IMG/VR virus record: IMGVR_UViG_3300044940_000530
Coordinates: 1-56,641 of that record
Length of the DNA: 56,641 nucleotides
Origin: a virus
Taxonomy: Duplodnaviria > Caudoviricetes
Direction: 5' to 3' (one strand)
Part shown: one piece after another, positions 1 through 56,641 of the stretch
Position numbering within the stretch: the first letter of the stretch is position 1
Layout: the number at the start of each line of letters is the position of its first letter
Notes under the pieces: generated by a model
The model's input: only the letters and a program-made list of their open reading frames with translations
What the model was told of the DNA's origin: nothing
The model's database searches: none
Position numbers and translations under genes: made by a program

Positions 1-233
1 AAACAGCCCCGCAGGTATTGTGTTGCTTTCCTCCGCGATTTCCGCCCAGAGCGACCCATCAACCGCCACGAGAGGCACGTCCCCCGCCACTTCGGAGAGG
101 CGCTTTCCCAACTCAGCCAGGGCAGGGGTGCGCGCAAAGCGGACGAACAGGGTTTTGTAGGGGTTCTTCCTTTGCTGGACGGACCGGATGTTCTGATTCT
201 TCTCAAAGAACCGAGTCGCCTTGCTGCCCTTGG
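1..233. repeat. 233-bp terminal direct repeat, left copy (circular assembly overlap)
   Basis: Identical to 56409-56641 except T106 vs C56514. It lies inside a continuous reading frame. Confidence 0.97.
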
Positions 234-3200
234 AACCTTCCTGCTGATAGATGGTGACGACTTCCACGCCCTTTTTCAGCGACCCGAGCGTGCCGAGCAG
301 CAAGTCCGCGAATCCCTGCCGCTCCCTGCCACCGAAAATGCCGGGTTGGGTGCGCTTGCCAAGCTCTGCGGCTCCGCCTGCATCGCTGTCGCGCAAGCGC
401 TCGATGATCTGTTCGGGCGTGAGGTTTGAGATTCCGTCGAGATCGACCATGGCCGCGAAAGCGGATTCGCGGGCATCGAAGTCGCCTTCCCCGCTAGCGT
501 CGTCGGTCGCCCCGCCCGTGCCGAGTCCTGTGGCCTCCACTTCGGCGGTCTCGCGCAGCGTTTCAATCGCGCCGGTATAGTCCTCCGCAGCGATGAAGGT
601 TTCGACAGCCCGGAGATCGTTGACGACATCGGGATCGCGCGGGGCTTTCAGGGCGGCAGCCAACCAACGAAGCGTGGCGTTCGCCCCCGCCGTGGTCGGC
701 GCATCCACCGATAAGGTTTTGGCAGTGGCGCGCAACACCCCTGGCGTTAGCTTCTGATTCTCGGGCCGATCAAGAATCTTACGAACCGCCTGCTCGATGC
801 GCGCCACCCGCCGCGCGAAGGCTTCCGGCGATTCGGCACGGGGCGACGATGGGTTGTCCAGCAACGCATCCAGAATCCGCTGCGCCTGTTCGTCGCGCTG
901 CTTGCTGCGGTTCTCGACTTCGGCGTTGATCGTGCTCTGCGTTGCGGCTTCGATTTGATTCACCTTGGCGACCCACGCCTCGGATCGGCCTCGGTTGTCC
1001 CCGCCAACCGTTCCCTTGCTGGCGAACGACTCCAACTCCGTGAGCCATTTCAGTTCGGCGAGATTGGGGTTCTCCGCCTTCAGCGTGTCGAACACTTCTC
1101 GCGCTCTTCTGAGGATGCGGATAATCGCGTCTGTGCGGATTCTTCCGCTTGGGTCTCTATTAGTCGCTATGGCGCGGATGCGCCCGAGCACCTTGGCGGT
1201 CGCCTCCGGATCGCCGCGAAGTGCGGTTTCCATCTCCCTGTCGCTGACGCGCTCTTCGCCCTTTCCGGCACGGGCGGCGATGGTCTTTTCGCGCGCGGCG
1301 CGCGCGGCGGTCGCGGCTTCCGGGGACATCTTCGCGACCCGGCGCTCGAACTCGATATCGGCTTCGCGCTGCTTTCGCTGGTCGTTCAACTCTTTGATTT
1401 GTTTACGGATGCGAGCATCGACCTTTTGCGATACGAGTCGCATCAACGAACCGCCAGCGTCGGATTCTTTATTCGCGCGAATCTCCTCCCGCACGTCGGA
1501 GATGATTTCGTCAGCGATCTCCCGCGCGGTAGCCGTTGTGATGATTACGTCTCCGCTCTCGTTGTCGAACGGGCCGTTCACACGAGCAAGGGTTTCCTTC
1601 AAGCGCGCCTCGATGCCGGGGCGTTCGGATTCGAGGACCGCTTCGAGTCGCGACGGCGGGGTGCCGGGTTTCTTCTGTTCGACTTTTTGCTGGACCGCCG
1701 GTTTCGATGATGATGTGCGATTGTTTGGTGTTTGTTCCTGTGTAGTAGGACCTTCTTCCGTGATGGGAGGGTTTTCCTGCGCGCTGGTAGATGAAGTTTC
1801 AGGTTCAGGTTGTGTTCCTGAGGACGGCTCTACTACAGGTGGCGCAGAAGTCGGCGTTCCAGATTCCGTAGGTGGTGTTTCAGTGGTTGCCGCCCGCGCC
1901 TTTTCAGCCGCCGCGATGGCCTTACGGATATCGGAAACACTGGGCTGCCCATTTTTGGTGGTCGCCGGAATGGTATTCACATCGATGCCCAACTCTTTGG
2001 CACGAGCCAAAGCGGCCTCGCGGGCAGGAGAAGGCCGCGATGTGGGTGTGGGTGTGGGTGTGGGTGTGGGTGTGGGTGTGGGTGTGGGTGTGGGTGTGGG
2101 TGTGGGTGTGGGTGTGGGTGTGGGCGTGGGTGTGGGTGGTGTAGGCGGCGTGGGTTCGGGCGTGGGCGTGGGCGTGGGCGTGGGCGTGGGTGTGGGTGTG
2201 GGTGTGGGTGTGGGTGTGGGTGTGGGTGTGGGTGTGGGTGTGGGTGTGGGTGTGGGTGTGGGTGTGGGCGTGGGTGTGGGTGTGGGTGTGGGTGTGGGTG
2301 TGGGCGTGGGTGTGGGTGGTGTAGGCGGCGTGGGTTCGGGCGTGGGCGTGGGCGTGGGCGTGGGCGTGGGCGTGGGCGCTTGGTCGAGTGCCGCTTCCGC
2401 CTGTTCCGCCTGTGCGATGGCTTTGCGAATATCGGAGAGGTTCGGTCGCCCGCTCTTGGAAGTCGTTGGAATCGATGACAAATCGATGCCCAACTCCTCG
2501 GCACGCGCCAAAGCGGCGGCGCGGGTAAGCGGAACATTCGGCGTAACTCCCGACGCCTGCTGAGCCGCCTGAGAAGCTGCCGCGATGGCGGTCTCGCCCT
2601 GCGCGGCAGGGCGTGAAGAGCCACCGCCCGCCGCTGCGGCATTCAGGGCAGCAGCCTGCGCACTATCGACGGCAGGTGCAGGCGCCGTGCCGGGCGGAGT
2701 CCCTTCGGGCGGCTGCGCCAACGCCTCCTGCAACGCCTTGAGAGCAGCGGGGTCCATCGGCTGCTCGCCCGCCCGCTTGCGGCCGAAACTCGAATCACGA
2801 ACCCGGTTGGCCTCCGTTCCGGCTGGGGGGAGCGCACCCGCGATGCCGCCGAGCGTGCCGCCGAGAGTCGCGCCTGTCAGCGCCCCCGTGGCTACATCTT
2901 CGGCGAGATCGCGGAAACTGAAGTCCCTCCCATCGAGATTCTGAATCCCGAACTGAGTCGCGGTATTCTCGATGCCCGACTGTGCCGCCTCTTCCTTCAT
3001 TTCGGCAACGGCACCGCGCCGTGCCCCCGCGAACACGCCCCGCACGCCTCCCGTCGCAAGGCTGGCAGCGGCGGGGCCAGTGATGCCATACGCCACACCC
3101 GCTGAAAGCGCACCCGCGATCAGTGGATACGCTCCCGCCGCCTCCCGAAGCGTCTGGTCCAGCGCGTCGCGTTGACCGACACCACTCTCGATAAGCTCCC

Positions 3201-3786
3201 TGTAACGCGGAACGGTGTCCATCCGCGTCTGCTCGTCCATATTGAGAAACTCATCGACGATTCCCGACCATACGCCTCCCATGGACAGCGAACCGCCGAC
3301 ACCGCCCGCCGTGGCACCGGCACCGGCGGTGATGGCTCCCGCCGAAGCGCCTGCGGCAGCCATGCCACGGGCGACAAGCCCAGCAGGCAGCAGCGTCGCC
3401 ACGATGGAGGGCGCGGCCTCCAAAGCCTTTACGGCGACCGCGCCGAAAAAGGTTCCCACGCTGTCGTAAGCGCTCGGACCGTCGCCACCGGGGATGAACT
3501 CGCGTTGGCTGGCCGTTCTGAACGATTCGGAGCGGCGCCCAAGAATCTCCCCGGCGCGATCCCGCAGCCCTTCACGCGTGTCGGTGAACCACCCTCCGGA
3601 CCCGAACAGATATTCGCCCGCTCCGGCGAGGGAAGAACCAAGCCCCAGAACACCGCCCGCAAGCGACCGCCCCACATCGCCCAAGAATCCCGGTTCGGAT
3701 TCAGATTTACGGCGGATGGAGTCGATGCTGGGGGCGTCGTCGAATACGAACGTGCCGCGCCCTGTAGGAATCAGTTGTCCTGCCAT
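1..3786 (-). CDS. Giant internal virion/ejection polyvalent protein, N-terminal 1262 codons (continues across the contig end into 56408..52566; about 2542 aa in total)
   Basis: ATG at 3786 overlaps the TGA of the upstream gene. No in-frame stop was found by hand in 1-2520, and the ORF track lists no closed ORF from 3786. It has a Gly/Ala-rich N-terminus, two PSBD-like repeats and a PT linker, and is in frame with ORF 52566..56519. Confidence 0.9.
2041..2378. repeat. (GGGTGT/GGGCGT)n hexamer repeat encoding a Pro-Thr linker, with a 180-bp higher-order duplication
   Basis: About 55 hexamer units. The interrupting block GGTGGTGTAGGCGGCGTGGGTTCGGG recurs at about 2135 and 2315. Confidence 0.97.
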
Positions 3787-6905: not shown

Positions 6906-7379
6906 TCATCCCCGCACGGTTCGGAGCCGTAGCCGAAGCCATCGGCAATCATCACGAGCCATTGTTACCACCACTCCCGGACCGGACACAAACATCTCCG
7001 GAAGAACCGCCTCCACGCGGAAGCCGAGCCGGAGATCAAAACTGAGAGCGTGTTCGTTGGCTTTTTCCACCAACCCGAAGATTCGCCGGTATCCCAACTG
7101 CACGAACGGGTAGTGGAACGTGGCGGCCAGCATGTCGTGGGTGATCCATCGCTCATGCCGACCGGCCACATGGAGCCAACACGAAGCACCCGTGTGGTTC
7201 GTGAATATGACCCCGCCAGCGACGCGATTCATCGAATCGCCTGAACCGTCCGAACCATCCAGGGCTTCCGAATCCTCGACGACACCGATGGTGGTATCCA
7301 GATCGGGGTTGTAGCCGCACTTCGCGCGCTCGGCGACGAACCTGCCGACCAAGGGAGAATCGAATACGAGCCTGCGCAT
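6906..7379 (-). CDS. Phage GNAT-family acetyltransferase
   Basis: FHYPFVQLGYRRIFGLVEKANEHALSFDLRLGFRVEA fits the GNAT C-terminal motif. SD GAGG precedes ATG 7379. Position before the ejection genes is as expected. Confidence 0.8.
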   Translation of the reverse strand: MRRLVFDSPLVGRFVAERAKCGYNPDLDTTIGVVEDSEALDGSDGSGDSMNRVAGGVIFTNHTGASCWLHVAGRHERWITHDMLAATFHYPFVQLGYRRIFGLVEKANEHALSFDLRLGFRVEAVLPEMFVSGPGVVVTMARDDCRWLRLRLRTVRG

Positions 7380-7387
7380 GGCCGTCC

Positions 7388-7885
7388 TCAAGTCGCATCG
7401 CGTGTGACGGTAGTGCGCACGCTTCCGGTCATCGAAGCGGTTACGCGCGCTTTGGTGTCGTTCACGTCGCGGAAAGTCACGGTGGCGTTACCGCCTCCAA
7501 GGTCCACAATGGTGGTCTTTCCGAAGTTGACCGCTGCCAGAAGCCGAATCGCCTGCCGCAACGTCATCCCCGATTCTATGGGCGCATCAAGAATCGCGGT
7601 CGCCACATCGTCCTGAGTCAGCGCATTGACGCGAACCACGGCGAGAGCTCTGCCCCGCGCCCTCGGAGCGGCACGCACCACTTCGGCGACACCCGCGATG
7701 ACGGCAGGGCGGTTGACGAGCCGTGTGCCGCGAGCGAAGGTGACGGCCCCCGATGCCGTAGTGACACCTCCCGCACGCGCCTCGCCATTCGCACGCGCGG
7801 ACTCGACAACCCCAACGCATGTAGTAACCGTCGCGGCCGCGCCGGGACCGTTCCAATGAAGGTTGGCGAGCGATGCGAGCGGCAT
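7388..7885 (-). CDS. Putative virion structural protein
   Basis: Translationally coupled ORF in the late operon; Thr/Val/Ala-rich. Confidence 0.6.
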   Translation of the reverse strand: MPLASLANLHWNGPGAAATVTTCVGVVESARANGEARAGGVTTASGAVTFARGTRLVNRPAVIAGVAEVVRAAPRARGRALAVVRVNALTQDDVATAILDAPIESGMTLRQAIRLLAAVNFGKTTIVDLGGGNATVTFRDVNDTKARVTASMTGSVRTTVTRDAT

Positions 7886-11963: not shown

Positions 11964-12332
11964 TCAGGAAGTAACCGCGATGCCTACCGTTAATGATCCA
12001 ACGGCGATGGTAACGGGCGAACCCGGCCCGAGTGTCACGGCGTTCACGAGCGGCCCCACCCATATGCAGGAACCTCCCGTGATCGTAGTGAACAGCCCGG
12101 CATGGGTCAGCCCGGAGAAAGCCACCGTCGTCGCAGGGACCGTCACCTCAGCGGCGTTCGTTCCACTCGCGCCTGTCACTGTCAGGCTGACGCTCACTCG
12201 CGTATATGAACCTCCGGAAGGTTCGCCGATCAGTCCTGCGGAATCCTTTCCGGTCCCCAACCCGAGGAAGTATGGACCGCTAACAGCCGCCATTGCCTGT
12301 GCGGCACCGGTCGTAGTCAAGTAGCTTGCCAT
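11964..12332 (-). CDS. Small tail/fibre-associated structural protein (paralogue of 8509..8943)
   Basis: GE.SGGSYTRV...NAAEVTVP...THAGLF...GPL pattern. Confidence 0.65.
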   Translation of the reverse strand: MASYLTTTGAAQAMAAVSGPYFLGLGTGKDSAGLIGEPSGGSYTRVSVSLTVTGASGTNAAEVTVPATTVAFSGLTHAGLFTTITGGSCIWVGPLVNAVTLGPGSPVTIAVGSLTVGIAVTS

Positions 12333-13555: not shown

Positions 13556-16102
13556 TCAGACCCTCGACAGAAGGTAGTTGAGATTCGCTTCAAGCACGCC
13601 ATCAGACGTGGGCGGAGCGAGATCGACGATGACTTCCCGCAACTCCCAGTTGCCCATGCCGCCCGTAGGATCGTAGAGAGCGCGGCCGATGCGGGCGCGT
13701 GGGTTGTTGGCGGACGTGCTCCATGTGCGAGCCGTGTTTCCGTCCACACTCTCCATGGTGGTGAAGTTCCCGCCCGCTGCCGACTTCACGCGGAGACGCG
13801 GAAGGTTATCGCTCGTGTTGGGCGTCGTCCGGTCGTCGTTGAAGACGAAGGCGATGGCGTGCCACACGTTTGCAACAACCGTCCCTGTCGTAGCCGCCAC
13901 AGTGACGGCGGTTCCAGAAGCACGCCAAGAACGAATCACACCGCTGCTGAGGACACACACGGCAACGCCGTTGCGTTCGTCGGCAAACGTGTTGTGCTGC
14001 GTGCCGCCGGAGAAGAGATAAGTCCGCCACGTCGGGACAGTGAGGAACCGGAACGTCATATATACGACGCCTCGCTGGCCCGAGTTTGGCGCGTTCCCAA
14101 GAAGCTGCGCCAACGTGCCGCTACCCGTCCCCGTAGCGAGGAAGTCCCCATTTTCGTCAGTTTGCGAATCCGAAGCAAACGAAATGGTTCCCGTGGACGT
14201 GCTGTGAGATGGCTGATTCGCCGCAGTGTTCTGAATCAGCGAGCGCGTCGCGGGACTCAACGAAGCAAACGACGACACGGCCCCGTTGGCTGTCGTCACG
14301 CTCGCCGCAGTGTTGGCGTCATGGATGTGAAGCGGGTCGTTCAACACCATGCCCGCAACCGTGGACGCGAGCGCGAAGAAGGTGCTCTCGTTCTGCCAAT
14401 CGATTGCGGTGCTTTCGCCACCACCTTGGACTGGCTGAACCGGCGAAGTTGGCTGCGAAGTCGCGATGCCCGTGCCCAAGCTGTTCTGACCCTGAACCCG
14501 CACCTCCATGGCCGCCCCCTGGTCGGCGACCGTAAGCGTGTAAGTCGCCGCCGTAGCCCCCGGCACGGCCACACCCGCGCGAAGCCACTGGAAGGTATAG
14601 GTGATCGGCGCACGACCCGCCCACGTTCCTGTGGAGGCGGTCAACGTCTGCCCCACCTGCGCTGTTCCTGTGATGGTCGGGAGAGTCTCGTTGATCGGGC
14701 GCTCGTCAACGACCGGGAGCATGTTGGAGAACCACGTAAACGTGTTCGAGGCCCACGTTCCGAGCGGGCGCGCGGCTGCTCCCGTGCCATACGTCACCGC
14801 CCAATACGTAGGCCCGATACCACGATTCGCACGCAGCCAATCCCTGTGCGTGATCAGCAGGTTGCGCCGCGTCACGGAATTGGCGTTATCGGTGGTGAAC
14901 CGGTCGAACTCCGCGACAAAGAACGGTCTGCCCGTCGCCGTTGACCACGCCACCGCGTTCGCCCAGGCAGAAGCCGGATTCATGGAATCCGTATAAAGGT
15001 GCGCCTTGTAGAGAACCCCGGTATCGAGCGTGGGCACGATCTGCGCCAAAGAACCGACAGACGAGAAGTTGGCACCCCCGGCCACGATGACGCGCGTCGG
15101 TGTCACGGCGCGCATCAAGGCCAGGAACTCCTCCCGGATGGGGCGATCCGTCGCCTCGCGTGCCGCGTCGTTGGCACCCAACGCAACGGATTCGTTCTGC
15201 CATTCCAACGCGAGACGGCGTTGCGGGTCGTTGATGTTCTGCTGGATGTGCGCGCACCACGACTGGCACAAGAGGTATAACCCGGCCCATCCGTAGTTGT
15301 TGCGGTTCGCCGCACCGTAAGGGTTGCCCCCTTGCGTCGTCGCAAAGTCCCAGAGGTTCTTCCCGAAGGGGGTGACGATGACATACATCCCCGCGTCGAG
15401 CGCGTTCTGGATCGATGCATACCAGTTGGTGCCGCGCGTATTGAGGTTGCGCCACACGCACAACATCGCGCCGCCGTTGGTCAACGTCACGGTCTGGTCC
15501 GCGCTGCGAGTGCCGGTGCCTCGGATTCTGACGAATCTATCCGGCCCCGAACCGCCAACGCTCGATACGTTATAGACCTGCCCGCGCGTTATCGTGATCC
15601 CCCCGATGGTTTGCGTCGCAGGCCCATCCCACCGCAGCACGACAGGATCGCCGACAACCGGATTCCATATGGGGTGATTGCCGATGCTCACCTCATCGGG
15701 AGCAAGCGCTGCGGAGGTCGCGATGGACGACACCGACCGCATGAACTCGAAGTTGTTGTTCGGGTCGAACACCTCGGCGAAGTTGCGAACCAGCCGGACA
15801 CCGCGCGCATACTGCTCATCGAAGTGCGCGCGGGGAATAATCCCGTTGGTGGTCACAGACCCAGGGATATAGAACGAATACCTCTCGTAGTTGAGCGCCC
15901 CCGCAGCCGACGCGGCGAGAAACGCCGGAATCATCGCCGCAGCGTTCCCCGCAGGCGGAATCGGGGTCCTGCCGAACGCCTGCGCGAGCGCGAACTGCGT
16001 ATCGACAGGAATCAGTGAATCCTCACCACGCTCGTAGGCGGTGATTCCAGCGGAATCAATACCGTCTCGAAACCTGCGAGCGCGCTGCGACCGTGTGACC
16101 AT
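13556..16102 (-). CDS. Virion-associated GH5-like glycoside hydrolase with Ig-like and C-terminal lectin/LamG-like domains, 848 aa
   Basis: GVRLVR, GMYVIV, LEWQNE (acid/base), AHLY, PFFVAEF (nucleophile) and YW motifs, then P.N.TLPTITGTAQVGQTLTASTGTW Ig-like repeat. Confidence 0.7.
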   Translation of the reverse strand: MVTRSQRARRFRDGIDSAGITAYERGEDSLIPVDTQFALAQAFGRTPIPPAGNAAAMIPAFLAASAAGALNYERYSFYIPGSVTTNGIIPRAHFDEQYARGVRLVRNFAEVFDPNNNFEFMRSVSSIATSAALAPDEVSIGNHPIWNPVVGDPVVLRWDGPATQTIGGITITRGQVYNVSSVGGSGPDRFVRIRGTGTRSADQTVTLTNGGAMLCVWRNLNTRGTNWYASIQNALDAGMYVIVTPFGKNLWDFATTQGGNPYGAANRNNYGWAGLYLLCQSWCAHIQQNINDPQRRLALEWQNESVALGANDAAREATDRPIREEFLALMRAVTPTRVIVAGGANFSSVGSLAQIVPTLDTGVLYKAHLYTDSMNPASAWANAVAWSTATGRPFFVAEFDRFTTDNANSVTRRNLLITHRDWLRANRGIGPTYWAVTYGTGAAARPLGTWASNTFTWFSNMLPVVDERPINETLPTITGTAQVGQTLTASTGTWAGRAPITYTFQWLRAGVAVPGATAATYTLTVADQGAAMEVRVQGQNSLGTGIATSQPTSPVQPVQGGGESTAIDWQNESTFFALASTVAGMVLNDPLHIHDANTAASVTTANGAVSSFASLSPATRSLIQNTAANQPSHSTSTGTISFASDSQTDENGDFLATGTGSGTLAQLLGNAPNSGQRGVVYMTFRFLTVPTWRTYLFSGGTQHNTFADERNGVAVCVLSSGVIRSWRASGTAVTVAATTGTVVANVWHAIAFVFNDDRTTPNTSDNLPRLRVKSAAGGNFTTMESVDGNTARTWSTSANNPRARIGRALYDPTGGMGNWELREVIVDLAPPTSDGVLEANLNYLLSRV

Positions 16103-16608: not shown

Positions 16609-17091
16609 TCATAAGGCAGCCGCCGTTTGAAACAGCGCATCCATTTGCTCGGCAGTGGCGAGTTGCGCATTGATGATCGCCTGAACCAGCGGATGCGACC
16701 GTTCAACCCGCGTCATGGTGGCCCAGGTAATACGCGCGGCAAGCGCCTGCTCTCCGGGCAGTTGCGCGAACACCGCGTCGATGGCAGCAGGCACATCGCC
16801 CGTCCTGGCCGCTGCCAGCGCCTCGGCCTCGGTGATCAGCCCCGCTTGCGCCAGCGCAATCAACAGTTGGCGACGCGAAATAATATCAGGAACAGCCAAC
16901 GGTGGCGACGGTGGCGGCGGATTCTCAACCCCCTCCTGAACCGGCTCAGGTTCCAACGGAACATCAATATTGCGAGCGGCTCTTGCGACTTCTGCGAACA
17001 ACGGATCGGTAGGCACAACGTGATAAGGCCAGTTATTGTCTGTTAGAATTACAAACGAGCCGTCCAAACGACGATAAAGAAGATTCCACAT
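16609..17091 (-). CDS. Tail fibre assembly/chaperone-like protein, 160 aa
   Basis: ATG 17091 overlaps the fibre stop; ISRRQLLIAL...W...RVERSHPLV...MDALFQTAA C-terminal pattern is typical of genes following tail fibres. Confidence 0.6.
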   Translation of the reverse strand: MWNLLYRRLDGSFVILTDNNWPYHVVPTDPLFAEVARAARNIDVPLEPEPVQEGVENPPPPSPPLAVPDIISRRQLLIALAQAGLITEAEALAAARTGDVPAAIDAVFAQLPGEQALAARITWATMTRVERSHPLVQAIINAQLATAEQMDALFQTAAAL

Positions 17092-18110
17092 CACGCAATC
17101 CTCCAAGCAAAACCAATCCATGATGGTGTTCCAGTAGCATTTGGTGGAGCAGACCCAAAAGCAGTCCCTCCGGCTGCAATCAAAACAGATGGAGAGTAAA
17201 GTGATGGTGGAACTCTCTCGCTGTTGCCATCCTGAGTAGGAACAAAATGCTCTAACCTCCAAACAAAACGAAAAACAAACCACGTTCCGCCTGATGGTAG
17301 TGTATAGGACGAACCTTGTATCACCACAACCTGCCCGACACCATTGGGTGATTGCGGCATTGGCGCGCGGGTTGAGATTTGCGCGCTAACATTCGTCACC
17401 TGCGTGTCCACATACGCCTTGCGTGTGGCGTGGTTCGGATTAGTAGGATCTGAACCGGGCAAAGTCAGTTGGCCCGTCATCGGCACCGAACCATCCGGTC
17501 TGACCAAAGACGCCGCAGCAATAGCTTGCGCGGTCCTCAATGGCGTCATCAACTTGTCCGGGTTCGTGCCCGCCTCGGCTTCGGTAAGCGTCGCAAGCCG
17601 CGCTGTTGTCTGCTCATACCCCCGAACAGGCGTGAGAAACAGTGTGTTGTCAGTCGGAGGAAGCAACTGAACGGCGGCCGTAGGTGTCGGCGTCAGGCGT
17701 TCGGTCAACGCCACGACATCAGAGATCGGATGCGTGTGCAGAAGCGGCGCGCGACTCGCCAGCGCGGCATCGAGTCCGACTATTTGCGCCGTCGTATGCG
17801 TGTGTCCCTGCTGCACGAAAGCATCGAAACACCCCGCCGTGATCCGCATGGTGACAGAAGAACCCGCCGTCCACGTCTGCGCCGACGTATCCTCGCGGCC
17901 GCGAACAACCGTCAGCACATCGCCCGTGCGGGCGGTGCAATGCATGATCTCGAACGCCGCGCCGTTCTGCACGGTGATGATGAAATACTGCCCCGGCGAA
18001 GGATTCGGAAAACGCGAACCTTCTCCGGGCGGCAGATTTACCGTGTTGTCCGTGATGAGAATCCCGGACGCCAGCGTGGAGACGACGTTGTTGCGGAAAA
18101 GGATTGTCAT
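17091..18110 (-). CDS. Tail fibre / receptor-binding protein, 339 aa
   Basis: FRNNVVSTLASGI...FP...FEIM.CTARTGDVLTV.RG.EDT anchor, HTH.I..GL metal-binding repeats, ATL.EAEAGT...MTPL and MTGQLTL...HATRKAYVD fibre motifs. Confidence 0.85.
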   Translation of the reverse strand: MTILFRNNVVSTLASGILITDNTVNLPPGEGSRFPNPSPGQYFIITVQNGAAFEIMHCTARTGDVLTVVRGREDTSAQTWTAGSSVTMRITAGCFDAFVQQGHTHTTAQIVGLDAALASRAPLLHTHPISDVVALTERLTPTPTAAVQLLPPTDNTLFLTPVRGYEQTTARLATLTEAEAGTNPDKLMTPLRTAQAIAAASLVRPDGSVPMTGQLTLPGSDPTNPNHATRKAYVDTQVTNVSAQISTRAPMPQSPNGVGQVVVIQGSSYTLPSGGTWFVFRFVWRLEHFVPTQDGNSERVPPSLYSPSVLIAAGGTAFGSAPPNATGTPSWIGFAWRIA

Positions 18111-31092: not shown

Positions 31093-31126
31093 CGCGGGGG
31101 GCGCAACGCCCCCCGCGCATTCGTTT
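31093..31126 (+). terminator. Probable intrinsic terminator
   Basis: 11-bp stem CGCGGGGGGCG/CGCCCCCCGCG followed by a T-rich tail. Confidence 0.7.
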
Positions 31127-31369
31127 GTGCATTTTGAGCGTTTAAACCCCTGAATCGTTGCGCGTGTGCGCATTATTTTTTGTTGCGCTATCACCCGTCG
31201 CAACAGAATGCGGCGCAAATTGTGGCAAATTGTGGCAAAGCGTCATCGCGCAGCGTTACATTTCGTAACATCGGCACGCGCGAAGCGGGCGTTTGCGGCT
31301 GATACGCGCCTCAACAACATGTTCCGTAGCCGTTCTAACCCTATTCTCTACAACCTACGGTAGCGATAA

Positions 31370-31740
31370 GGGTAACAATATTGCGCGCAAGGGGGGTGTT
31401 TGCGCAAACTTGCAGGGGGTGTGAATTAGGTGTGAATTAAAGTGTGAATTGTTCGGCACGCAGGCGCAAGGAAAAACATAAGGATATCAATAGGTTAACA
31501 TATATAGGTATATAAGGTAATATTATATTAGTCATATTCACACCCCTCCAAAGGAGGCGCCGTAGCGATTTTTTCGTGTTTCCGGCTGCGGCGCCTGCTG
31601 CCGTCCCCCCGCGCGCGCCTCCTCAAAAAAAGGGTGTGAATATGACTAATATGCAAAAAACCTAGGAAACTCTAGGACTCCAACCCCGTTCTGTGCAGTA
31701 ATCGTAACGGTGAATATGTGTGAATATGTGTGAATTAGAA
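31370..31740. other. Putative replication origin: AT-rich tract, GTGTGAATW iteron-like repeats and a 21-bp inverted repeat
   Basis: GTGTGAATW at 31419, 31430, 31442, 31634, 31718 and 31728 (partial at 31710, reverse at about 31535); AT-rich 31470-31545; inverted repeat 31525-31545/31632-31652. Confidence 0.6.
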
Positions 31741-31780
31741 AGCGCAACAATACGGAACACGTAACAAAACACACGATTAG

Positions 31781-32087
31781 GAATCCAATCCACGATTCTA
31801 TGAATCAGATTCGTAAAATAAGATTCATACAACGAATCAGATTCGCAAAACAAGATTCATACAATGCATCAGATTCGTTGAATCATGAGCACCCAAGGAA
31901 TCAGATTCCTGGATTGAATCATTAATGAAGAATCCGATTCCTGAAACGCACTCAAACACCGAATCCGATTCTTCAAACGCGCACATTATGAGAATCAAAT
32001 ACCTCTGATTCGGATAAACCGACGAATCAGATTCGCACTATGCACCGCATGACGACTCTGCGAATCAAACATTGCGCTGCAGGATTC
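31781..32087. repeat. GANTC-dense array with GAATCnGATTC palindromes at a 31-32 bp period
   Basis: 24 GANTC sites (23 GAWTC) in 307 bp; cores at 31802, 31834, (31866), 31898, 31930, 31961, (31992) and 32024. Confidence 0.92.
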
Positions 32088-32105
32088 GTCATGCGCTTTA
32101 CGCGC

Positions 32106-35055: not shown

Positions 35056-35146
35056 GCGAAGGAACATAGGACCAACTACCCATGGTTGCGCTCCCGTTTG
35101 TGTTTGGTGCGCGGAAACGTGCGGGAATGCGCTATACTTGCGATCC

Positions 35147-35211: not shown

Positions 35212-35224
35212 GGGAGTGCGTTCC

Positions 35225-37595: not shown

Positions 37596-37607
37596 GGGGG
37601 GCACACC

Positions 37608-42882: not shown

Positions 42883-43575
42883 ATGGACCCCAGGCCGTTT
42901 TCGTGGTCCTTCTCGAAACTCAAGAACTTCGAGACATGCCCACGCCGTCACTACGCGGTCGATATCGCCAGACGGTGGACCGAAGAAGAATCGGCGCAGT
43001 TGAAATACGGCAACGAAGTGCATGACGCCATCGCCGCGCGCATCAGCAAGGATACGCCGTTCCCTCCCCAGCATCAGCACCTCGCCCGTGCCGTGGACAC
43101 GGTGCTCGCCTTGCGCGCGACCGGCGTCAAGATGCTGGTCGAGCAGCAACTTGCCGTCAATCGCAGGTTCGAGCCTGTGGGCTACTTCGAGCAGGGCAGG
43201 GACGGGGCGTGGTTCCGCGCCAAGGTGGACCTCTGCATCATCGATCCCGAGAGGCGCAAGGGCGCGGCTTTGGATTGGAAGACCGGAAAGAAGAAGGAGG
43301 ACATGCCGCAACTGGCGCTCACCGCGCTTGTCGTGTTCGCGCACTTCCCTGTCGTCGATTCGCTCGCATGCCAGTTCGTGTGGCTCCAAGACAACGACAC
43401 GACGACGAGCCACTACAAGCGCGAGGATACCCAACGCATCTGGGCTTCCTTGCTGCCGCGCTATCAGCGGCTGGAAGATGCCCACAACCGCCAGGACTAC
43501 CCGCCCGCACCGGGCCGCCTTTGTGCGAAGTGGTGCCCGGTTCGCGATTGCGAACATCACGGCAAGCAGTATTGA
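42883..43575 (+). CDS. PD-(D/E)XK exonuclease (Cas4/RecB-like, Cys cluster)
   Basis: WSFSKL..FETCPR, E..L, KVDL, DWKTGK, QL and C..WC....C. Confidence 0.9.
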   Translation: MDPRPFSWSFSKLKNFETCPRRHYAVDIARRWTEEESAQLKYGNEVHDAIAARISKDTPFPPQHQHLARAVDTVLALRATGVKMLVEQQLAVNRRFEPVGYFEQGRDGAWFRAKVDLCIIDPERRKGAALDWKTGKKKEDMPQLALTALVVFAHFPVVDSLACQFVWLQDNDTTTSHYKREDTQRIWASLLPRYQRLEDAHNRQDYPPAPGRLCAKWCPVRDCEHHGKQY

Positions 43576-43871: not shown

Positions 43872-44216
43872 ATGACGCCAGAAGGCAAGGTGAAAGCGAC
43901 CGTGCGCGCGAAACTCAAAGACGCGGGCGCGTATCTGTTCATGCCGGTGCAGAACGGCATGGGCGCGCCGAGTCTGGATTTCATCGGCTGCCACCGGGGG
44001 CGGTTCTTCGGGATCGAAACCAAGGCGGGCAAGGGCAAGGTGACGCCACGGCAGTGCCACACCGCGTCGCTCATGGCGCGCGCGGGCGCGGCGGTGTTTT
44101 TGCTGCACCCCGAGTGCGAGCGGCCATGGCTGCTGCTGGACAGGTTTCTGTGCGATCCCGCAGCGATTGTTGACTGCAAAGAATCGTTCCCTGGCATAGA
44201 ATCCTTCATGAAGTAG
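43872..44216 (+). CDS. VRR-NUC domain nuclease (resolvase-like)
   Basis: MTPEGKVK, G.P.LDFIGC..GRFFGIETKA..G..T..Q. Confidence 0.88.
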   Translation: MTPEGKVKATVRAKLKDAGAYLFMPVQNGMGAPSLDFIGCHRGRFFGIETKAGKGKVTPRQCHTASLMARAGAAVFLLHPECERPWLLLDRFLCDPAAIVDCKESFPGIESFMK

Positions 44217-44878: not shown

Positions 44879-46480
44879 ATGGACCTCAACAACAAGACTC
44901 CGCTGCCGCCAACGAATCAAGAATCCTCCGTGATGGTGAGCCGCGCCCACCGCACGGTGGCCGTGCCCTTCAACGAGACGCTGGCCGACTACATCAAGGA
45001 CGCCAAGCGCGTGACCTATGGCGGCAAGGACATGCTGCTCATACGGCACGACGAGGCCAACACCACCATCGCCCGCGCCCTCGGCGTGCCGGTGCCCGCG
45101 CCGATTCTCTGGCACTATGACTGGGCTGGCGGCGCGCCGTTCGTCGTGCAGCAGCAGACGGCGGCGATGCTCACCCTCAATCATCGTGCCTACGTGCTGA
45201 ACGACATGGGGACGGGCAAAACGCGCACCGTGCTGTGGGCATACGATTACTTGCGCAAAGCGAATCAGGTCCGTTCCGCTCTGATCGTGGCCCCCCTCTC
45301 GACGCTGACCAATGTGTGGGCGCGGGAGATATTCGCCACCGTGCCGCACTATTCCTACAGCGTGCTCCATGGCGATACCAAGGTGCGCCGCGAGCGGCTG
45401 GCGGCGAAGGCGGATATCTACATCATCAACCACGATGGAATCAAAGTCGTCGCGGATGCGCTGAAACTACATCCCGATATCGACTTGATCGTGATCGACG
45501 AATTGGCTGTGTTCCGCAACGGCGCTGCGGCACGCACGCGGACGATGCGGAAGCTGGCGGAATCCCGAAAGCGAGTGTGGGGGCTGACCGGTTCGCCGAT
45601 TCCCACAGAGCCGACCGATGCATGGGCGCAAGCCTCCATCGTCACGCCGTGGACGGTGCCCATGTCATACAACGGGTTTCGCGATCTCACGATGCAACGA
45701 ATCACGCAATTCAAATGGGTCCCGCGACCCACCGCGCTTGCGCATGTCGCCAACGCGCTGCAACCGAGCGTCCGGTTCACTCTGGATGAGATCGTGGAGT
45801 TGCCCGAGGTGATCCACCGCGAGGTGCCAATCACCCAGTCTCCGAAACAGAAGGAGGTCTATACCGCGCTGGAAAAGGAGCTTTACGCCAAGTTCCAATG
45901 CGGCGAATTGACCGTTCTCAATGCCGGGGTGCTGCTCAACAAGCTTCTGCAAATCTCTCTCGGCTGCGTGTATGTCAACAGCGGCGCGGTTTTCCACATG
46001 GACAACGCCGACCGCATACAGGCGTTGATCGATTCCATCGAATCGACGGATCGCAAGGTGATCGTCTATGTGCCGTTCATCCACGCCATGAAGAATGTCG
46101 TGGATGAGTTGACCAAAGCCAAGATCAGTTGCGAATCAGTATCGGGCGAGACACCGGCGTCAAAGCGTGCCGATATCTTCAAGCGTTTCCAGACAGACCC
46201 AAGCCCGCGCGTGCTTGTTGCGCACCCTCAATGCATGGCGCACGGCATCACGCTCACTGCGGCCAACACCATCATCTGGTTTGGACCTATCGCCAACAAC
46301 GAAGTGTTCGAGCAGGCGAACGCACGAATTAACCGTATCGGCCAGACTCACAAGCAACAGGTGCTCATGTTCGCCGGGACCACGGCCGAGCGGAAACTGT
46401 ATGCCCGGCTCAAAGAGCGCGGCGATACGCAATCGCTGCTGCTCGACATGATGGCGGAAACGACGCAACAACACGTTTAG
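44879..46480 (+). CDS. SNF2-family (SF2) helicase, 533 aa
   Basis: DMGTGKT, VAP, IDE, LTGSP, HGITLT and QANARINRIGQ. Confidence 0.92.
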   Translation: MDLNNKTPLPPTNQESSVMVSRAHRTVAVPFNETLADYIKDAKRVTYGGKDMLLIRHDEANTTIARALGVPVPAPILWHYDWAGGAPFVVQQQTAAMLTLNHRAYVLNDMGTGKTRTVLWAYDYLRKANQVRSALIVAPLSTLTNVWAREIFATVPHYSYSVLHGDTKVRRERLAAKADIYIINHDGIKVVADALKLHPDIDLIVIDELAVFRNGAAARTRTMRKLAESRKRVWGLTGSPIPTEPTDAWAQASIVTPWTVPMSYNGFRDLTMQRITQFKWVPRPTALAHVANALQPSVRFTLDEIVELPEVIHREVPITQSPKQKEVYTALEKELYAKFQCGELTVLNAGVLLNKLLQISLGCVYVNSGAVFHMDNADRIQALIDSIESTDRKVIVYVPFIHAMKNVVDELTKAKISCESVSGETPASKRADIFKRFQTDPSPRVLVAHPQCMAHGITLTAANTIIWFGPIANNEVFEQANARINRIGQTHKQQVLMFAGTTAERKLYARLKERGDTQSLLLDMMAETTQQHV

Positions 46481-52565: not shown

Positions 52566-55500
52566 CTAGTCGGTGCCGAATCTGCCTTCGTCCAGCACGA
52601 ACCGCCGTGAACGCGGCACGTAGATGCCATCGACGGCTTCGCGTTCGCGACGCATCTTCTCGCGCATGCTTTGCCGGATGTTGTCCCTCGTGATGCGCGC
52701 GGGTATCTGTTCCGGCGATAGATTCCTGTTGAAATCATCAATCGCCAAAAGCGCCTTCCGCCGCTCTTCATATGTCTCCGCCTGCCGCAACGCGCGGAGC
52801 AGTTCGCTGCGTTTGCGGTCGAACCGTCGTAGCTCTCCTTGGACGGCGTTTCGCCGCTCATAGATGTTCGAGACCCGCGTCGGGGTGAACCCGACCGCCT
52901 GAATGATCGCTTCGCTGGTGCTGAAATCCTTGCCGCCGTCGATTCGCTCGCCGCGACGGTTGGTGACGCCCTCTTCGCTCAACCGCAATGCCCTGATCAC
53001 GTCGCGGATTGCTTTGGGCGTAACCGCTTCCGCAGCGCGCGCGTAGTCGCCGCTGAACGCAAGCTTCGGTGCCGACAGCGCCGCGACCAGCATGCTTCCC
53101 GGCGCGCCAAGAATAAACTCGCCTGCGTAGTGCGTCAGCGTTCTGGATTCGTAGTCGCGCAGGTCTTTCAGGAAGATAAGCCCGTCGAGTCCGAGACGGG
53201 TGGACATGTCCACACCGAATGCGGACGGAATACCGCGCGAGATCGCCTGTTCAGCGGTTGGCCCCATCAGGGCGGCCAGTTGTTTCCGGACCTCGGTTTC
53301 CCAATCGGGCGGTTCGTCGGCACCGAACAGGAGCGCGAGTGCGCCCGCCGCGATCACGAACACTTCCGTTGGCAGCCCAAGCACGCCTGCCATCACGGCA
53401 TGGGTGAGCAGAACATAGGCGAGCGTCTTGCGCGCGACCGCGCGTTCCTCGGGGCTTTTTCCTTTCACGGCGAGGTAGATTTGACGAATCAGAAGGAAAT
53501 ACACTGCCTGCGCATACTTGCGGAACGTCATCATCGGCGCGAGCAGCGGATACCGGCGCGCGTCCATATACCGCGCCGTGTTTGCCGACGAGTAATCCGC
53601 CTGCGATAGATCGACCACCTCGCGCGCTTCGGCGGTGGCAGCGCGGGCGTCCTTTCCCGCGCGGCGCGCGAGCCTGTATGTGGCAACCGCCGTCATGGCG
53701 CGGTTGACCACCTCGATTGAACTGGGGAACGCGCGGGCCATGGCTTCGGTCTGCGCAAGCTTGGTGGCAGCCCACCCCTGGGAAGCCTGCACCGTGCGGA
53801 CAAGCTCCAACCCCGCCGAGGCGTCGATGAGGCCCTCTTTGGCAAGCTCATCGAGCATGGCGTTCAACTCCGCGCCATCGCTTTGCTTACCAACGGCGCT
53901 CTTCACCAGGGACAAGAGGTCGAGCGCCTGCTTCTCCTTGCCGGTGCCGAGCGTCTTGACGGTGCGCGCGAACTCCTTTGCGCCGCCTTTCAGCACGCGG
54001 CCTGCGCCGATGCTGTTCACGGCCCGAGCCAACTCGACGTTGCCACGCGCCCCATACCTCGCCGACAGGATCGGCGCGGCCAGCATCCATGGCTGCGTGA
54101 TTTGAATCATGGAATACGAAGGCGACAGCAGATAATACGAAAACGCCATCGATTGCAGTGTCCGAATGAACTTGTTCGTCGATCCCCGCCCGGCGGGATC
54201 GACCGACGAGGATGCGGCGCGTTCCTCGAACTCGCGCAGCACGCGCTGACGGCGGACGGTATTGCCCGTGTCGGTCGTGCCGCCTTGTGGGTATTCCTCG
54301 CTCTTGATGTTGTCCTGCATGCCACGCATGGCGTCGGCGATCCGCTGCGCCGTCTTTACGCCTGCGTAATAGTTGGACGCGGAGATTCCGTAGTTGGCGA
54401 TGACGCGGCGGATGTCCTTGTTGGCACCCGCAACGCGGCGACGCTTGATCAGCGTGTTGTTCAGCAGCCGATTCGGAGTCAGTTGCAGAAGCGCGTCGGA
54501 CGCGGCGCGCACCGCTATTTCCTTTTGCTTCGGCGTCAGCGTCTTGTCGTCTTCGATGTATTTGAGCAAGCGCTGCCCTTCCGCGTCGAGCATGGAGACG
54601 GTTCCTTCGGCTTCGGCACGCAGCGCGATCTCCGCGACCTCGTGCTTCTTCTGCTGAACCAACTCCTGGCGGAACGTTTCGGCTTCGGCGCGCGTCTCGA
54701 AGAACGCAACGCCTTGCGTCTGCAACTCCAACTCGTATTCCACCTTCGCCGCAGCCTTGCGTGTCTTGTTCAGGGCGGCCTTGTATGCCTTGCGGTTGGC
54801 GGCGGCGATCTCCTGCGGTGTAGGCGCGGACCCGAGCAGCCCGCGCTGAACGGCTTGCTCCGCCTTGAGGATCGCAGGGTCCGGCTTGGTGATCTCGTTG
54901 CCTTGCGCGTCGTAGTAGCGCGTGATGGAATCATTGAGAACGGGCAACGAAGATTTCGCCGCGAAGGCTTCCCTGTCCGCGCGCGTGGCGAACTTGTAGA
55001 TCGACTGAGGGGATTCCTTCCAGCGAACAATGTAATCGCCGAACCGCTGCAAGGGAATGTAAGGACCCGCCAGCTTTCCGCGATTCCGCGTTGTGTCGAG
55101 AATCTCCGCCGTCGCATCGCCGACCAGCGTCCTGTCCTGCGCCGTCTCTACGCCTGTGGCCCATCGCAGCGCGAGCGGTTCCAGATCGCGGTGCCGCAGC
55201 GGCAGCGGAGTGTTGGCGCGGATGGCCTCATCGACCTGCGCGCGCCACCAGCGTTCGACGTTGGATTGCATCAGCGCCACGAGCATGTCCTTGTGGATTT
55301 TTTCCATGCTCGCGACGATCTTCTTATACACTGCCTGCTGTTTCGGCGTCAGCTTCGCCCACTCTGCGGACAGAACGCCGTGCAGTGCTTGCGCTTGCGC
55401 TTCGCGAGCGCCTTTCGGCGTTCCTTTCTTCGAGAGAATGTGCGCGTTCTTCGGGTCTGTGAGCGGAACGTCGGGATGCACCTCGGCGAGTGTGGCCTTC

Positions 55501-56641
55501 AACATGAAGTCGTTGAGGGTCGCGATCTCCTCGGGCTGCATGTCCCATGCCTGCAAAAGCGGCACGATATTGGTGCTCAGATAAGATTCGGCGATCTGCG
55601 CGCGTTCGGTGAGGGCCTTCACTCCCATCGTCAGGGGATCGTCGCGCCCGTTTGGATCGATCATGTCCATGCGCACGGTGCGCTTGAACAGCCCGGCGCT
55701 CATCATCTCGATTTGGCGCAGTGTTGCGAATCCGAGCCCTGTTCTCTTGAACCACTCCGTGATCGACGATGTTGAGGGCGCGGCGGCGACGCTCAACCGC
55801 TTCATCACCGCCAACGGTGCCGCCGCCGTATCCTCGGGGCGGCTGTGCTGGTTCACCAAGTATGCCAGCGCATCCAGCATGCGCTCGTCGTTGGCCTGAA
55901 TCCCTTCGGCACCGAGCAGGATGGACGCTTCCAACGCGGACATGGCCTCCGCATCGACGCTCGCGGGCAGGCGGGGCAGGCCGAGCGCCGAACGCACCAG
56001 TTGAACGAACGCCGCCCATGCGTTTCTGAACGTGCCGAAGATGCCGATGCGCGCTTGTTCCGCCTTGGATATCGAAATGCCCTCAAGGACGCGCTGCACT
56101 TCGCGGTTCGTCATCGCCATGGTGATGAACTCGTGCGGCGATGACAGTGCATAGGTCATGTAATCGGAACGCGGAGCGTTGCCCAACTTATCGGCGACGA
56201 ACTGCATCAATCGTTCCGCTCGCGCCCGCAGGGCGGTGTCCTTCAACAACGTCATCACGGTCGCCGCATGAACTAATTCATGTGCAACCGTCTCATCAAG
56301 CCCGGCAACCCCGAGGTAGGGTTCGTTCGGGTAGAGGATCAGGTCCTCGGGGATAAAAATCGTCCCGGCGGGAGCGCCCTCAGCGATTTCCTTTGTGGTC
56401 GACGGCACAAACAGCCCCGCAGGTATTGTGTTGCTTTCCTCCGCGATTTCCGCCCAGAGCGACCCATCAACCGCCACGAGAGGCACGTCCCCCGCCACTT
56501 CGGAGAGGCGCTTCCCCAACTCAGCCAGGGCAGGGGTGCGCGCAAAGCGGACGAACAGGGTTTTGTAGGGGTTCTTCCTTTGCTGGACGGACCGGATGTT
56601 CTGATTCTTCTCAAAGAACCGAGTCGCCTTGCTGCCCTTGG
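52566..56641 (-). CDS. Giant polyvalent ejection protein, C-terminal part (HExxH metallopeptidase-like and PLxRFG domains)
   Basis: VAHELVHAAT...HEF zincin motif; YIPLQRFGDY PLxRFG motif; the frame continues from 1..3786. Confidence 0.9.
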   Translation of the reverse strand, partial: KGSKATRFFEKNQNIRSVQQRKNPYKTLFVRFARTPALAELGKRLSEVAGDVPLVAVDGSLWAEIAEESNTIPAGLFVPSTTKEIAEGAPAGTIFIPEDLILYPNEPYLGVAGLDETVAHELVHAATVMTLLKDTALRARAERLMQFVADKLGNAPRSDYMTYALSSPHEFITMAMTNREVQRVLEGISISKAEQARIGIFGTFRNAWAAFVQLVRSALGLPRLPASVDAEAMSALEASILLGAEGIQANDERMLDALAYLVNQHSRPEDTAAAPLAVMKRLSVAAAPSTSSITEWFKRTGLGFATLRQIEMMSAGLFKRTVRMDMIDPNGRDDPLTMGVKALTERAQIAESYLSTNIVPLLQAWDMQPEEIATLNDFMLKATLAEVHPDVPLTDPKNAHILSKKGTPKGAREAQAQALHGVLSAEWAKLTPKQQAVYKKIVASMEKIHKDMLVALMQSNVERWWRAQVDEAIRANTPLPLRHRDLEPLALRWATGVETAQDRTLVGDATAEILDTTRNRGKLAGPYIPLQRFGDYIVRWKESPQSIYKFATRADREAFAAKSSLPVLNDSITRYYDAQGNEITKPDPAILKAEQAVQRGLLGSAPTPQEIAAANRKAYKAALNKTRKAAAKVEYELELQTQGVAFFETRAEAETFRQELVQQKKHEVAEIALRAEAEGTVSMLDAEGQRLLKYIEDDKTLTPKQKEIAVRAASDALLQLTPNRLLNNTLIKRRRVAGANKDIRRVIANYGISASNYYAGVKTAQRIADAMRGMQDNIKSEEYPQGGTTDTGNTVRRQRVLREFEERAASSSVDPAGRGSTNKFIRTLQSMAFSYYLLSPSYSMIQITQPWMLAAPILSARYGARGNVELARAVNSIGAGRVLKGGAKEFARTVKTLGTGKEKQALDLLSLVKSAVGKQSDGAELNAMLDELAKEGLIDASAGLELVRTVQASQGWAATKLAQTEAMARAFPSSIEVVNRAMTAVATYRLARRAGKDARAATAEAREVVDLSQADYSSANTARYMDARRYPLLAPMMTFRKYAQAVYFLLIRQIYLAVKGKSPEERAVARKTLAYVLLTHAVMAGVLGLPTEVFVIAAGALALLFGADEPPDWETEVRKQLAALMGPTAEQAISRGIPSAFGVDMSTRLGLDGLIFLKDLRDYESRTLTHYAGEFILGAPGSMLVAALSAPKLAFSGDYARAAEAVTPKAIRDVIRALRLSEEGVTNRRGERIDGGKDFSTSEAIIQAVGFTPTRVSNIYERRNAVQGELRRFDRKRSELLRALRQAETYEERRKALLAIDDFNRNLSPEQIPARITRDNIRQSMREKMRREREAVDGIYVPRSRRFVLDEGRFGTD
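56409..56641. repeat. 233-bp terminal direct repeat, right copy
   Basis: Matches 1-233 with one mismatch. Confidence 0.97.

Follow-up and report, generated by a model that had tools for sequence, protein, structure and literature searches.

Oriented and evenly spaced GANTC pairs across a podophage genome

The virus record IMGVR_UViG_3300044940_000530 (Duplodnaviria; Caudoviricetes) was analyzed over its full length of 56,641 bp, hereafter referred to as the window, and represents a podophage according to its Pfam and PHROGs gene content. The pentamer GAWTC (GAATC or GATTC) is strongly over-represented throughout this genome, and selection acts on a composite of two half-sites, GAYTC-spacer-GARTC, rather than on the lone pentamer. 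GANTC, the word to which both half-sites belong, is the N6-methyladenine (m6A) site of CcrM in Alphaproteobacteria. On balance, the GAWTC excess is probably the footprint of selection for genome-wide two-part docking sites of a two-fold symmetric GANTC reader tied to a phage-encoded adenine methylase.

GAWTC excess and pair geometry

The excess had been proposed from the letters of the window alone (hereafter, the sequence-only reading), on the basis of hand counts of 12 GAWTC and 4 GASTC sites in positions 1-1500 and 7 GAWTC sites in positions 37600-38600, together with the claim that GAWTC is enriched inside genes as well. The hand counts are exact and the enrichment holds for the whole window, which contains 369 GAWTC sites (174 GAATC and 195 GATTC) against 73 expected by a mononucleotide model (5.0-fold excess), 157 and 163 by order-1 and order-2 Markov models, 191.6±8.1 by synonymous-codon shuffling (maximum 215 in 300 shuffles) and 165±8 by codon-order shuffling. 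Pooled over both strands, the excess reaches z = 21.7. The mononucleotide, order-1 and order-2 models and the two codon shuffles all give GATTC first and GAATC second place among the 1,024 pentamers, and GAWTC stands both above its codon-shuffled expectation and at the top of the enriched pentamers. Under the maximal, order-3 Markov model the excess falls to 1.2-fold, because the 4-mers GATT, AATC, GAAT and ATTC themselves carry the GAWTC excess.

In the codon test suggested by the sequence-only reading, ATT, AAT, GAT and GAA are preferred where they complete GAWTC. Isoleucine is encoded by ATT in 64 of 84 cases (76%) between G and C, compared with 93 of 659 (14%) elsewhere, and asparagine by AAT in 59 of 97 cases (61%) that would complete the word, compared with 95 of 515 (18%). 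Before TCN, GAT accounts for 55 of 62 aspartate codons (89%; 322 of 770, or 42%, elsewhere) and GAA for 48 of 62 glutamate codons (77%; 313 of 834, or 38%, elsewhere), while arginine codons of the form xGA make up 31% before ATC or TTC and 9% otherwise. Because rare codons are used where they complete GAWTC, selection acts on the DNA word itself.

GAWTC sites occur in all three frames (103/59/123), without strand bias relative to genes, and are found genome-wide at 9-17 per 2 kb, rising to 25 in the 30-32 kb bin. Relative to home-made gene calls (46 genes covering 87% of the window), their density is 11.3 per kb outside genes and 5.8 per kb inside. No longer motif was found around the pentamer, the flanks of which carry little information; half-sites of pairs show a Y-GATTC-K context, with Y before in 66% and K after in 64% of 70 half-sites.

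GASTC, which the sequence-only reading had set apart as not enriched, is indeed not in excess, with 77 sites (24 GACTC and 53 GAGTC) against 122 expected by the mononucleotide model and 99 or 80 by the codon shuffles, but it does not lie outside the system: 26 of the 77 sites are in pairs, and sister phages use mainly GACTC..GAGTC. Short palindromes in phages are normally read as avoidance targets, and here one is driven the opposite way in a group that otherwise purges it. The window completely or nearly avoids at least 14 other palindromes, including GTAC (0; 77-195 expected), CCGCGG (0; 64 expected), GCCGGC (0; 51-59 expected) and CGATCG (0; 48-56 expected). CCCGGG, GGGCCC, GACGTC, GGATCC, GTGCAC, CTCGAG, GAATTC, CAGCTG and AGATCT are each absent, AATT occurs 21 times (80-135 expected), CTAG 15 times and CCWGG 70 times against about 175. 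The related genome G006 has the same avoidance list, save for GCCGGC, which occurs 77 times there.

The arrangement of the sites is highly ordered. GAYTC and GARTC face each other head-to-head at start-to-start distances of 8-9 or 17-19 bp, forming 71 pairs with N3-4 or N12-14 spacers. The histogram of GAYTC>GARTC distances gives 14 pairs at 8 bp, 7 at 9 bp, 11 at 17 bp, 26 at 18 bp and 12 at 19 bp, where 0.88 would be expected at each distance. No such peaks appear for the reverse and direct orientations, save for a tail-to-tail 6 bp class and a 32-bp period contributed by a non-coding array at 31.79-32.10 kb. At distances of 16-19 bp the central bases are T/A in 36 pairs, T/G in 10, C/A in 3 and C/G in 1, and mixed pairs also exceed chance (10 GATTC..GAGTC against 0.7 expected; 3 GACTC..GAATC against 0.3). 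The half-sites are strict and W and S centres both occur in pairs, in agreement with the CcrM-type target word GANTC. In total, 140 of 446 GANTC sites lie in pairs, a few sites being counted twice because the window ends repeat (positions 1-233 match 56409-56641 with one mismatch). The pairs hold 112 of the 369 GAWTC sites, equivalent to 63% of the 177 sites in excess over the codon-shuffle null. The positive selection proposed by the sequence-only reading is thus upheld as DNA-level selection with the layout of a protein docking site, but the selected unit is the two-part site and not the lone pentamer.

By sequence geometry, the outer adenine positions of a pair are 10-11 bp or 19-21 bp apart, with no three-turn class; because this separation corresponds to one or two helical turns, both halves would face the same side of the helix. 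Perfect partners occur at 10-25 times background, and partners matching four of five positions remain at background (11-15 against 11.3±3.2), with the same result in G006. Loose transcription-factor sites were therefore rejected, one-mismatch partners being unenriched in both genomes. With such all-or-none partners, enzyme-like recognition of the restriction-modification type, or recognition dependent on a mark, is to be expected.

The pairs are also evenly spread. Gaps between them have a coefficient of variation (CV) of 0.51-0.56 in the window and G006 alike, whereas placing the pairs at random gives 0.98±0.12 and none of 5000 simulations came as low, and the largest gap is about half that expected at random; lone sites are randomly spaced (CV 1.03). 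Wholly intragenic pairs, on either strand, make up 55 of the 71, the other 16 touching non-coding DNA, and 12 of 70 lie within 40 bp of a gene border against 6.9±2.5 by chance, a weak effect. In aligned orthologous segments only 2 of 18 window pairs hold their place in G006, compared with 0.33 by chance. Even gaps together with this positional turnover indicate selection on even coverage of the genome and not on particular positions. Gene-specific operators were rejected on the grounds of intragenic placement, absence of strand bias and the low number of positions kept in G006. Cluster A mycobacteriophage stoperators and the C1 operators of phage P1 are asymmetric sites of 13-17 bp, oriented with transcription and mostly intergenic. 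They resemble the pairs as tens of scattered copies of one protein-binding word that differs between related phages; in contrast, the pairs are symmetric, are built from a 5-bp word, lie mainly within genes and show no strand bias.

One pair stands out by its conservation: GATTC-N13-GAATC at 19929-19951, in the capsid gene, is found at the same place in L048, L049, L051-L055, L058 and G006, and is kept also in phages that otherwise prefer C/G centres.

Given as left start/distance, the pairs of the first 31 kb are 195/18, 756/18, 1463/16, 1628/17, 2937/18, 3524/19, 5010/17, 5228/18, 5785/18, 7226/8, 7572/19, 9273/18, 9676/18, 10453/18, 10916/19, 11849/9, 12743/9, 12996/18, 14215/18, 14977/8, 15524/9, 16511/18, 17753/19, 18425/8, 19428/19, 19929/18, 21540/17, 22290/18, 23675/18, 24953/18, 25892/17, 27350/8 and /19, 29367/9 and /18, and 29892/18. 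They continue with 31015/18, 31794/8, 31872/8, 32007/17, 32054/8, 32881/18, 33226/8, 33521/18, 34319/9, 34752/18, 35287/17, 35992/8, 36536/8, 37286/8, 37698/17, 38495/19, 39562/8, 40061/9, 40639/8, 41011/19, 41825/18, 42560/8, 42857/19, 43574/18, 44230/17, 44896/18, 46031/9, 46893/19, 47804/17, 48670/19, 49664/17, 51069/17, 52559/19 and 55082/18, while 56603/18 duplicates pair 195 in the terminal repeat.

Pairs and methylase among relatives

When the analysis was repeated in related phages, the pairs proved to be common to a small podophage clade. Its closest members are the fragments L048-L050, with capsid proteins 88-90% identical to that of the window and pairs of the T/A type, followed by L051-L058 (capsid 71-74% identical), in which GACTC..GAGTC predominates, and by G006 with L128 and L129 (capsid 68%, other proteins ~35-65%), G006 having 60 pairs in 43 kb of T/A and C/A type. 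L301 has 13 pairs of the C/G type in 9 kb (~every 680 bp), and L300 and L303, both too short for a significance test, have 2 pairs against 0.04 expected and 3 against 0.05, respectively. Pairs are significant in L128, L129, L048, L051-L058 and L301, and are absent from 34 polA relatives and 64 SNF2 relatives. Among 80 relatives by major capsid protein (MCP), 9 pass the pair test; the other 71 comprise 69 with at most 59% identity, in which no pairs were found, plus L049 and L050, whose 3 and 2 pairs are too few to pass. Several relatives are fragments, and L048-L058 do not include the position of the methylase gene.

Outside this clade the word is depleted or even purged. GAWTC falls below half its expectation in 37 of the 64 SNF2 relatives, 12 of the 64 have at most two GANTC sites where at least 20 are expected, and the Rhizobium phage RHph_TM3_14A has none in 50 kb (~143 expected). 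According to excerpts of two reports, GANTC depletion is known in pelagiphages and alphaproteobacterial genomes, the word being scarce in CcrM hosts and in the majority of the phages that infect them (PMC9516812, PMC8919816); the phage analyzed here differs in carrying it 2-5 times over expectation and in pairs. Because such hosts and most of their phages deplete GANTC, the enrichment itself provides no pointer to an alphaproteobacterial host, as the sequence-only reading had taken it to do. The host it named is nevertheless very probably correct, because the hosts of the closest cultured phages are Rhizobium, with Roseobacter and Pelagibacter next, and because homologues of the methylase concentrate in Alphaproteobacteria. 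We found no published reports of GANTC or GAWTC enrichment, or of paired sites, in phages, supplementary motif tables aside, and no paper under the names of the Rhizobium phages.

The gene of the candidate partner of the pairs (P0001, 44228..44875, + strand) encodes a predicted 215-aa N6-adenine DNA methyltransferase and is inserted between a VRR-NUC-like nuclease gene and an SNF2 helicase gene. Its motif I (DPCAGDGAM) precedes motif IV (TNPPF), the gamma order, and across 31 homologues T115, N116, P118 and F119 are invariant and P117, E54, P55, G58 and G60 at least 90% conserved. The protein matches PHROG 799 ('DNA methyltransferase', E 1e-25); Pfam and NCBIfam scans gave no match over cut-off (N6_Mtase at 9 bits against a cut-off of 20.4), and a PDB sequence search returned nothing useful. 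Its structural model (predicted local distance difference test, pLDDT, 89.8) has HsdM (3lkd), M.BseCI (7qw7), M.TaqI (1g38), CamA and PacII as best Foldseek matches, with template-modelling (TM) scores by query of only 0.43-0.56 and with the RNA methylases KsgA and TrmM also matching. Motif order and modelled fold thus suggest a gamma-class HsdM/M.TaqI-like N6-adenine methylase, although 215 residues leave no room for a separate target-recognition domain.

The methylase is predicted to pair as a symmetric homodimer. The dimer model has an ipSAE (interaction prediction score from aligned errors) of 0.57 against 0.00 for the best control. Of the proteins solved as one-chain pairs, 20 of 30 attained this mark, as did 1 of the 23 whose solved form is a single chain; runs share at least 97% of contacts, the pLDDT of the partner is at least 82, and the modelled interface is symmetric and formed by the conserved C-terminal residues 153-213.

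Methylase orthologues with 47-51% identity are present on every clade contig that covers the position (the window, G006/L128, L301 and L300/L303), in the same gene position where the flank suffices, and all of these contigs have pairs. The gene is absent by tblastn from all 80 SNF2-helicase relatives searched; in L051, L052, L056, L057 and L058, where no match was found, the records are 29-48% complete and hence uninformative. Within this minimal 200-aa family, 13 of 14 cultured-phage records are from phages with alphaproteobacterial hosts and 15 of 15 bacterial genomes are Alphaproteobacteria, the one class in which the family turned up among the cellular genomes searched. Loci with homologues of at most 45% identity are depleted in GANTC, with GASTC often reduced nearly to zero. 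At the loci of such distant homologues (L211-L289 and L344-L358), GAWTC stands at about half its expectation and GASTC is often nearly gone (e.g. 1/23 and 0/24; 52 of 67 viral loci below 0.5), which hints that members of the family may protect W-centred sites only.

Known methylation systems offer partial parallels. CcrM/GANTC methylation, including CcrM relatives with GAWTC specificity, is alike in pentamer, in very probable host class and in the presence of a phage-encoded adenine methylase, but CcrM is a beta-class enzyme, whereas the phage protein would have a 215-aa gamma-order HsdM/TaqI-like core. The CcrM-type domain PF01555 (beta-class N6_N4_Mtase) was not matched in a six-frame search of the window with E values up to 1, whereas the control search succeeded in 14 of 14 genomes. 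Type I methylases form M2S1 complexes that recognize two half-sites, the adenines to be methylated lying about one turn from each other and the spacer usually measuring 6-8 bp. The likeness lies in the modelled HsdM-like core, the two-part target and the separation by one or two turns of adenines located on opposite strands; the phage differs in that six frames of the window contain no match to PF01420 that would indicate an HsdS partner, in its longer spacers of 12-14 bp and in the enrichment of lone pentamers as well. HIP1 of cyanobacteria is a single 8-bp palindrome linked to methylases, with no known pair geometry or even spacing. Like GAWTC, it is a methylation-related palindrome over-represented across coding DNA and accompanied by a matching methylase (in the phage, a candidate one), but in a different taxon and with a different word.

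Candidate binders and competing explanations

We propose that a two-fold symmetric protein with strict GANTC recognition would dock on the pairs from one side of the double helix, each subunit contacting one half-site. The phage keeps one pair per ~0.7-1.2 kb genome-wide, inside and between genes, and would be under selection to have such a site no further than about a kilobase from any point of its genome. The clade-specific 215-aa methylase is the best candidate partner, as a homodimer landing on the pairs and marking GANTC on phage DNA, although its being the binder itself is possible rather than probable; alternatively, it would be the writer of a mark for a separate dimeric reader. Gain of the methylase would explain the tolerance of the clade for a word that its relatives must purge, and lone GAWTC sites would in part be leftovers or precursors of pairs that turn over. 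As to purpose, our guess is that the genome-wide array might serve fast and complete self-marking, coating, or telling phage from host DNA. Protein binding, the identity of the binder as methylase or reader of its mark, GANTC as the target and the purpose of the array are what we infer from these patterns.

Several observations weigh against this proposal. Lone GAWTC sites remain at 1.3-1.6 times expectation once pairs are removed. For protection from a GANTC-cutting enzyme alone, fewer sites would be better, leaving the benefit of many unexplained. The homodimer is a model and not a measurement. Pairs are absent from 67 viral, 15 metagenome (at least 4 kb) and 15 bacterial loci with methylase homologues of at most 45% identity, and because of these loci the methylase family alone must be insufficient for the trait. 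The link between methylase and pairs may even reflect only shared ancestry, as it is seen in about four related lineages that are not independent. Finally, no reader candidate emerged for the clade-specific early genes in Pfam (49 translated stretches), PHROGs (20), NCBIfam (10) or Atlas (two clade-specific genes), the scans covering open reading frames (ORFs) outside the gaps 6906-7391, 11964-12332, 16609-18179, 34943-35593 and 38411-39034; the sole hint is a sub-threshold HTH_23 match in 26680-27312(-).

A rather unlikely alternative is that a separate dimeric reader of phage or host origin, SeqA- or GcrA-like, binds the pairs while the methylase only writes the mark, the resulting array serving to coat, organize, transcribe or sequester phage DNA. 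The helical phasing at one and two turns and the strictness toward partners are consistent with a protein that reads a mark, the host is probably an alphaproteobacterium, and the phage has many early genes of unknown function. SeqA of E. coli binds pairs of GATC sites on one helix face. The phage pairs are alike in joining a short methylation word one or two turns apart, genome-wide, with exact sites needed, and at separations of 8-9 and 17-19 bp their exact sites fall on the same side of the helix; unlike the SeqA word GATC, which lacks orientation, they are strictly head-to-head by central base, evenly spaced and located on a phage genome. The Y-GATTC-K context resembles the best GcrA site, TGATTCG / YGAKTCK, as given in an excerpt of the source (PMC4647560). 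The Y/R rule of the pairs differs, however, from the K/M rule of the GcrA motif, and six frames of the window contain no profile match to a GcrA-like gene. GcrA is not, to our knowledge, in need of paired sites. No reader candidate was found in the phage, no search aimed at a SeqA-like gene having been made.

Under an improbable second alternative, the pairs would be working sites of a dimeric nuclease, nickase or recombinase, Type IIS-like, providing regular nicks, breaks or recombination points. Strict recognition, half-sites facing across a fixed 12-14 bp spacer and even spacing suit such an enzyme, and two nuclease genes lie near the methylase: a PD-(D/E)XK nuclease gene (42883-43572) and, just upstream of the methylase, the VRR-NUC-like gene for a 114-aa protein (43872..44216, + strand), which carries the PHROG label 'endonuclease / Holliday junction resolvase' and whose syntenic counterpart in RHph_TM3_14A is annotated VRR-NUC. 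Both are nonetheless conserved in relatives without pairs (PD-(D/E)XK in 69 of 80, VRR-NUC-like in 64 of 80), so that the VRR-NUC-like nuclease is not specific to the trait, and two spacing classes one turn apart suit binding to one face better than a fixed cutting distance.

It is highly improbable that the sites lack a function altogether and reflect a directional mutation or repair bias, such as methylase-tied short-patch repair, after a GANTC-avoiding ancestor gained protection. In E. coli, biased repair is regarded as a force shaping words akin to the Dcm site, and relatives do purge GANTC while the trait coincides with gain of the methylase. Yet such a bias cannot yield oriented pairs at two phased distances, perfect-only partners and even spacing, and release from avoidance predicts observed/expected ratios near 1, not ~2-5. 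The 15 one-letter neighbours of GATTC, moreover, are not systematically depleted, the low counts of AATTC and GATCC belonging to avoided palindromes; a one-step conversion drive was rejected for this reason.

That the pairs fold into hairpins in RNA or in single-strand DNA, acting for example as regulatory stem-loops or as sites of processing, is scarcely credible, for although the halves are reverse complements and a cultured relative carries a true hairpin repeat, GTTACC-N6-GGTAAC, at gene borders, the pairs would form 5-bp stems with 12-14 nt loops, flank complementarity beyond the 5 bp is at chance level (17-43% outward and 9-29% inward in 35 pairs), unlike in REP-like elements, most pairs are wholly intragenic on either strand, and mixed pairs such as GATTC..GAGTC place T opposite G at the centre.

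Returning to the proposal of a symmetric GANTC reader tied to the methylase, a more far-reaching version, which we regard as distinctly doubtful, is that the array forms a self-identity lattice, drawn from the host cell-cycle methylation word and written by a minimal dimeric methylase, by which a dimeric protein would distinguish phage DNA from the word-poor DNA of the host and load onto or coat the phage genome. If true, such a lattice would represent a genome-wide architectural signal of a new class among viruses, with a role like that of Chi, uptake sequences and SeqA tracts.

The array as observed, maintained despite the turnover of single sites, provides a clean and testable example of a virus in which a genome-wide signal linked to methylation is positively selected, and the minimal 200-aa methylase family is a candidate for unusual DNA recognition. 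Oriented, evenly spaced pairs are a signature by which further viral genomes could be screened, and the trait bears on the division of alphaproteobacterial phages into lineages with and without GANTC.

Genome context and the largest non-coding region

The densest GAWTC stretch of the genome is the non-coding array at 31790..32100. It contains about six 11-bp palindromes GAATCNGATTC, in which the half-sites lie tail-to-tail with a start-to-start distance of 6, repeated with a period of ~32 bp, plus extra GAWTC sites; the repeat family D1 within it has 5 copies at spacings of 32, 32, 32 and 94. The array adjoins the rest of the largest non-coding region (31100..31790), which contains GTGTGAAT(T/A) direct repeats in two clusters (31416-31445 and 31700-31737), an A+T-rich stretch (31480-31530) and a perfect 21-nt inverted repeat (31525-31545 with 31632-31652). 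From its anatomy, 31100..31790 may be an origin or early control region.

The window has a G+C content of 62.4%, and the repetition of its first 233 bases at the opposite end marks the genome as either closed or terminally redundant. In line with the podophage assignment, Pfam and PHROGs identified an SU10-like portal and adaptor, capsid, GP4 gp80-like fibre, GH5-domain tail protein and terminase, as well as a family A DNA polymerase, the PD-(D/E)XK nuclease, the SNF2-family helicase (44879..46480, + strand, 7 bp downstream of the methylase gene) and a DUF927 primase-helicase. A giant polyvalent protein with an LPD39 domain and an E3-binding-like stretch is encoded on the minus strand (3786..1 then 56408..52566) in a frame that crosses the junction; the two frames, 1-3786(-) and 52566-56639(-), would join as one protein of ~2,540 aa.

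Megablast of 20 kb of the window against the phage collection returned no match. By capsid protein (52.5% identity), the closest cultured phages are the Rhizobium phages RHph_TM3_14A, TM27A/B and TM29, followed by Roseobacter and Pelagibacter phages, and RHph_TM3_14A has the same gene order as the window. The window DNA, or parts of it, is present as assembled contigs in ten sequencing runs from hot-spring and microbial-mat metagenomes.

RHph_TM3_14A (L290; MN988472.1 1-50000) carries 26 copies of the 18-bp palindrome GTTACC-N6-GGTAAC, with a 7-bp stem and a 4-nt loop. Of the copies compared by eye, most lie at annotated gene borders, and several 3' arms overlap a ribosome-binding site. The top pentamers of this phage are GTAAC/GTTAC and GGTAA/TTACC, either set of which also tops many metagenomic relatives, and hexamers of the GTTACC/GGTAAC kind occur only 2-3 times in the window.

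Two further features concern the virion proteins of the window. An 18-bp tandem repeat at 22057-22141, within the portal gene (21922-24501, minus strand), corresponds to a collagen-like triple-helix repeat match in the C-terminal part of the portal. The 848-aa tail-region protein (13559-16102, minus strand) has a GH5 cellulase domain (E 3e-13) and, judging by this domain, is possibly a depolymerase directed against a glucan-type surface polymer of the host.

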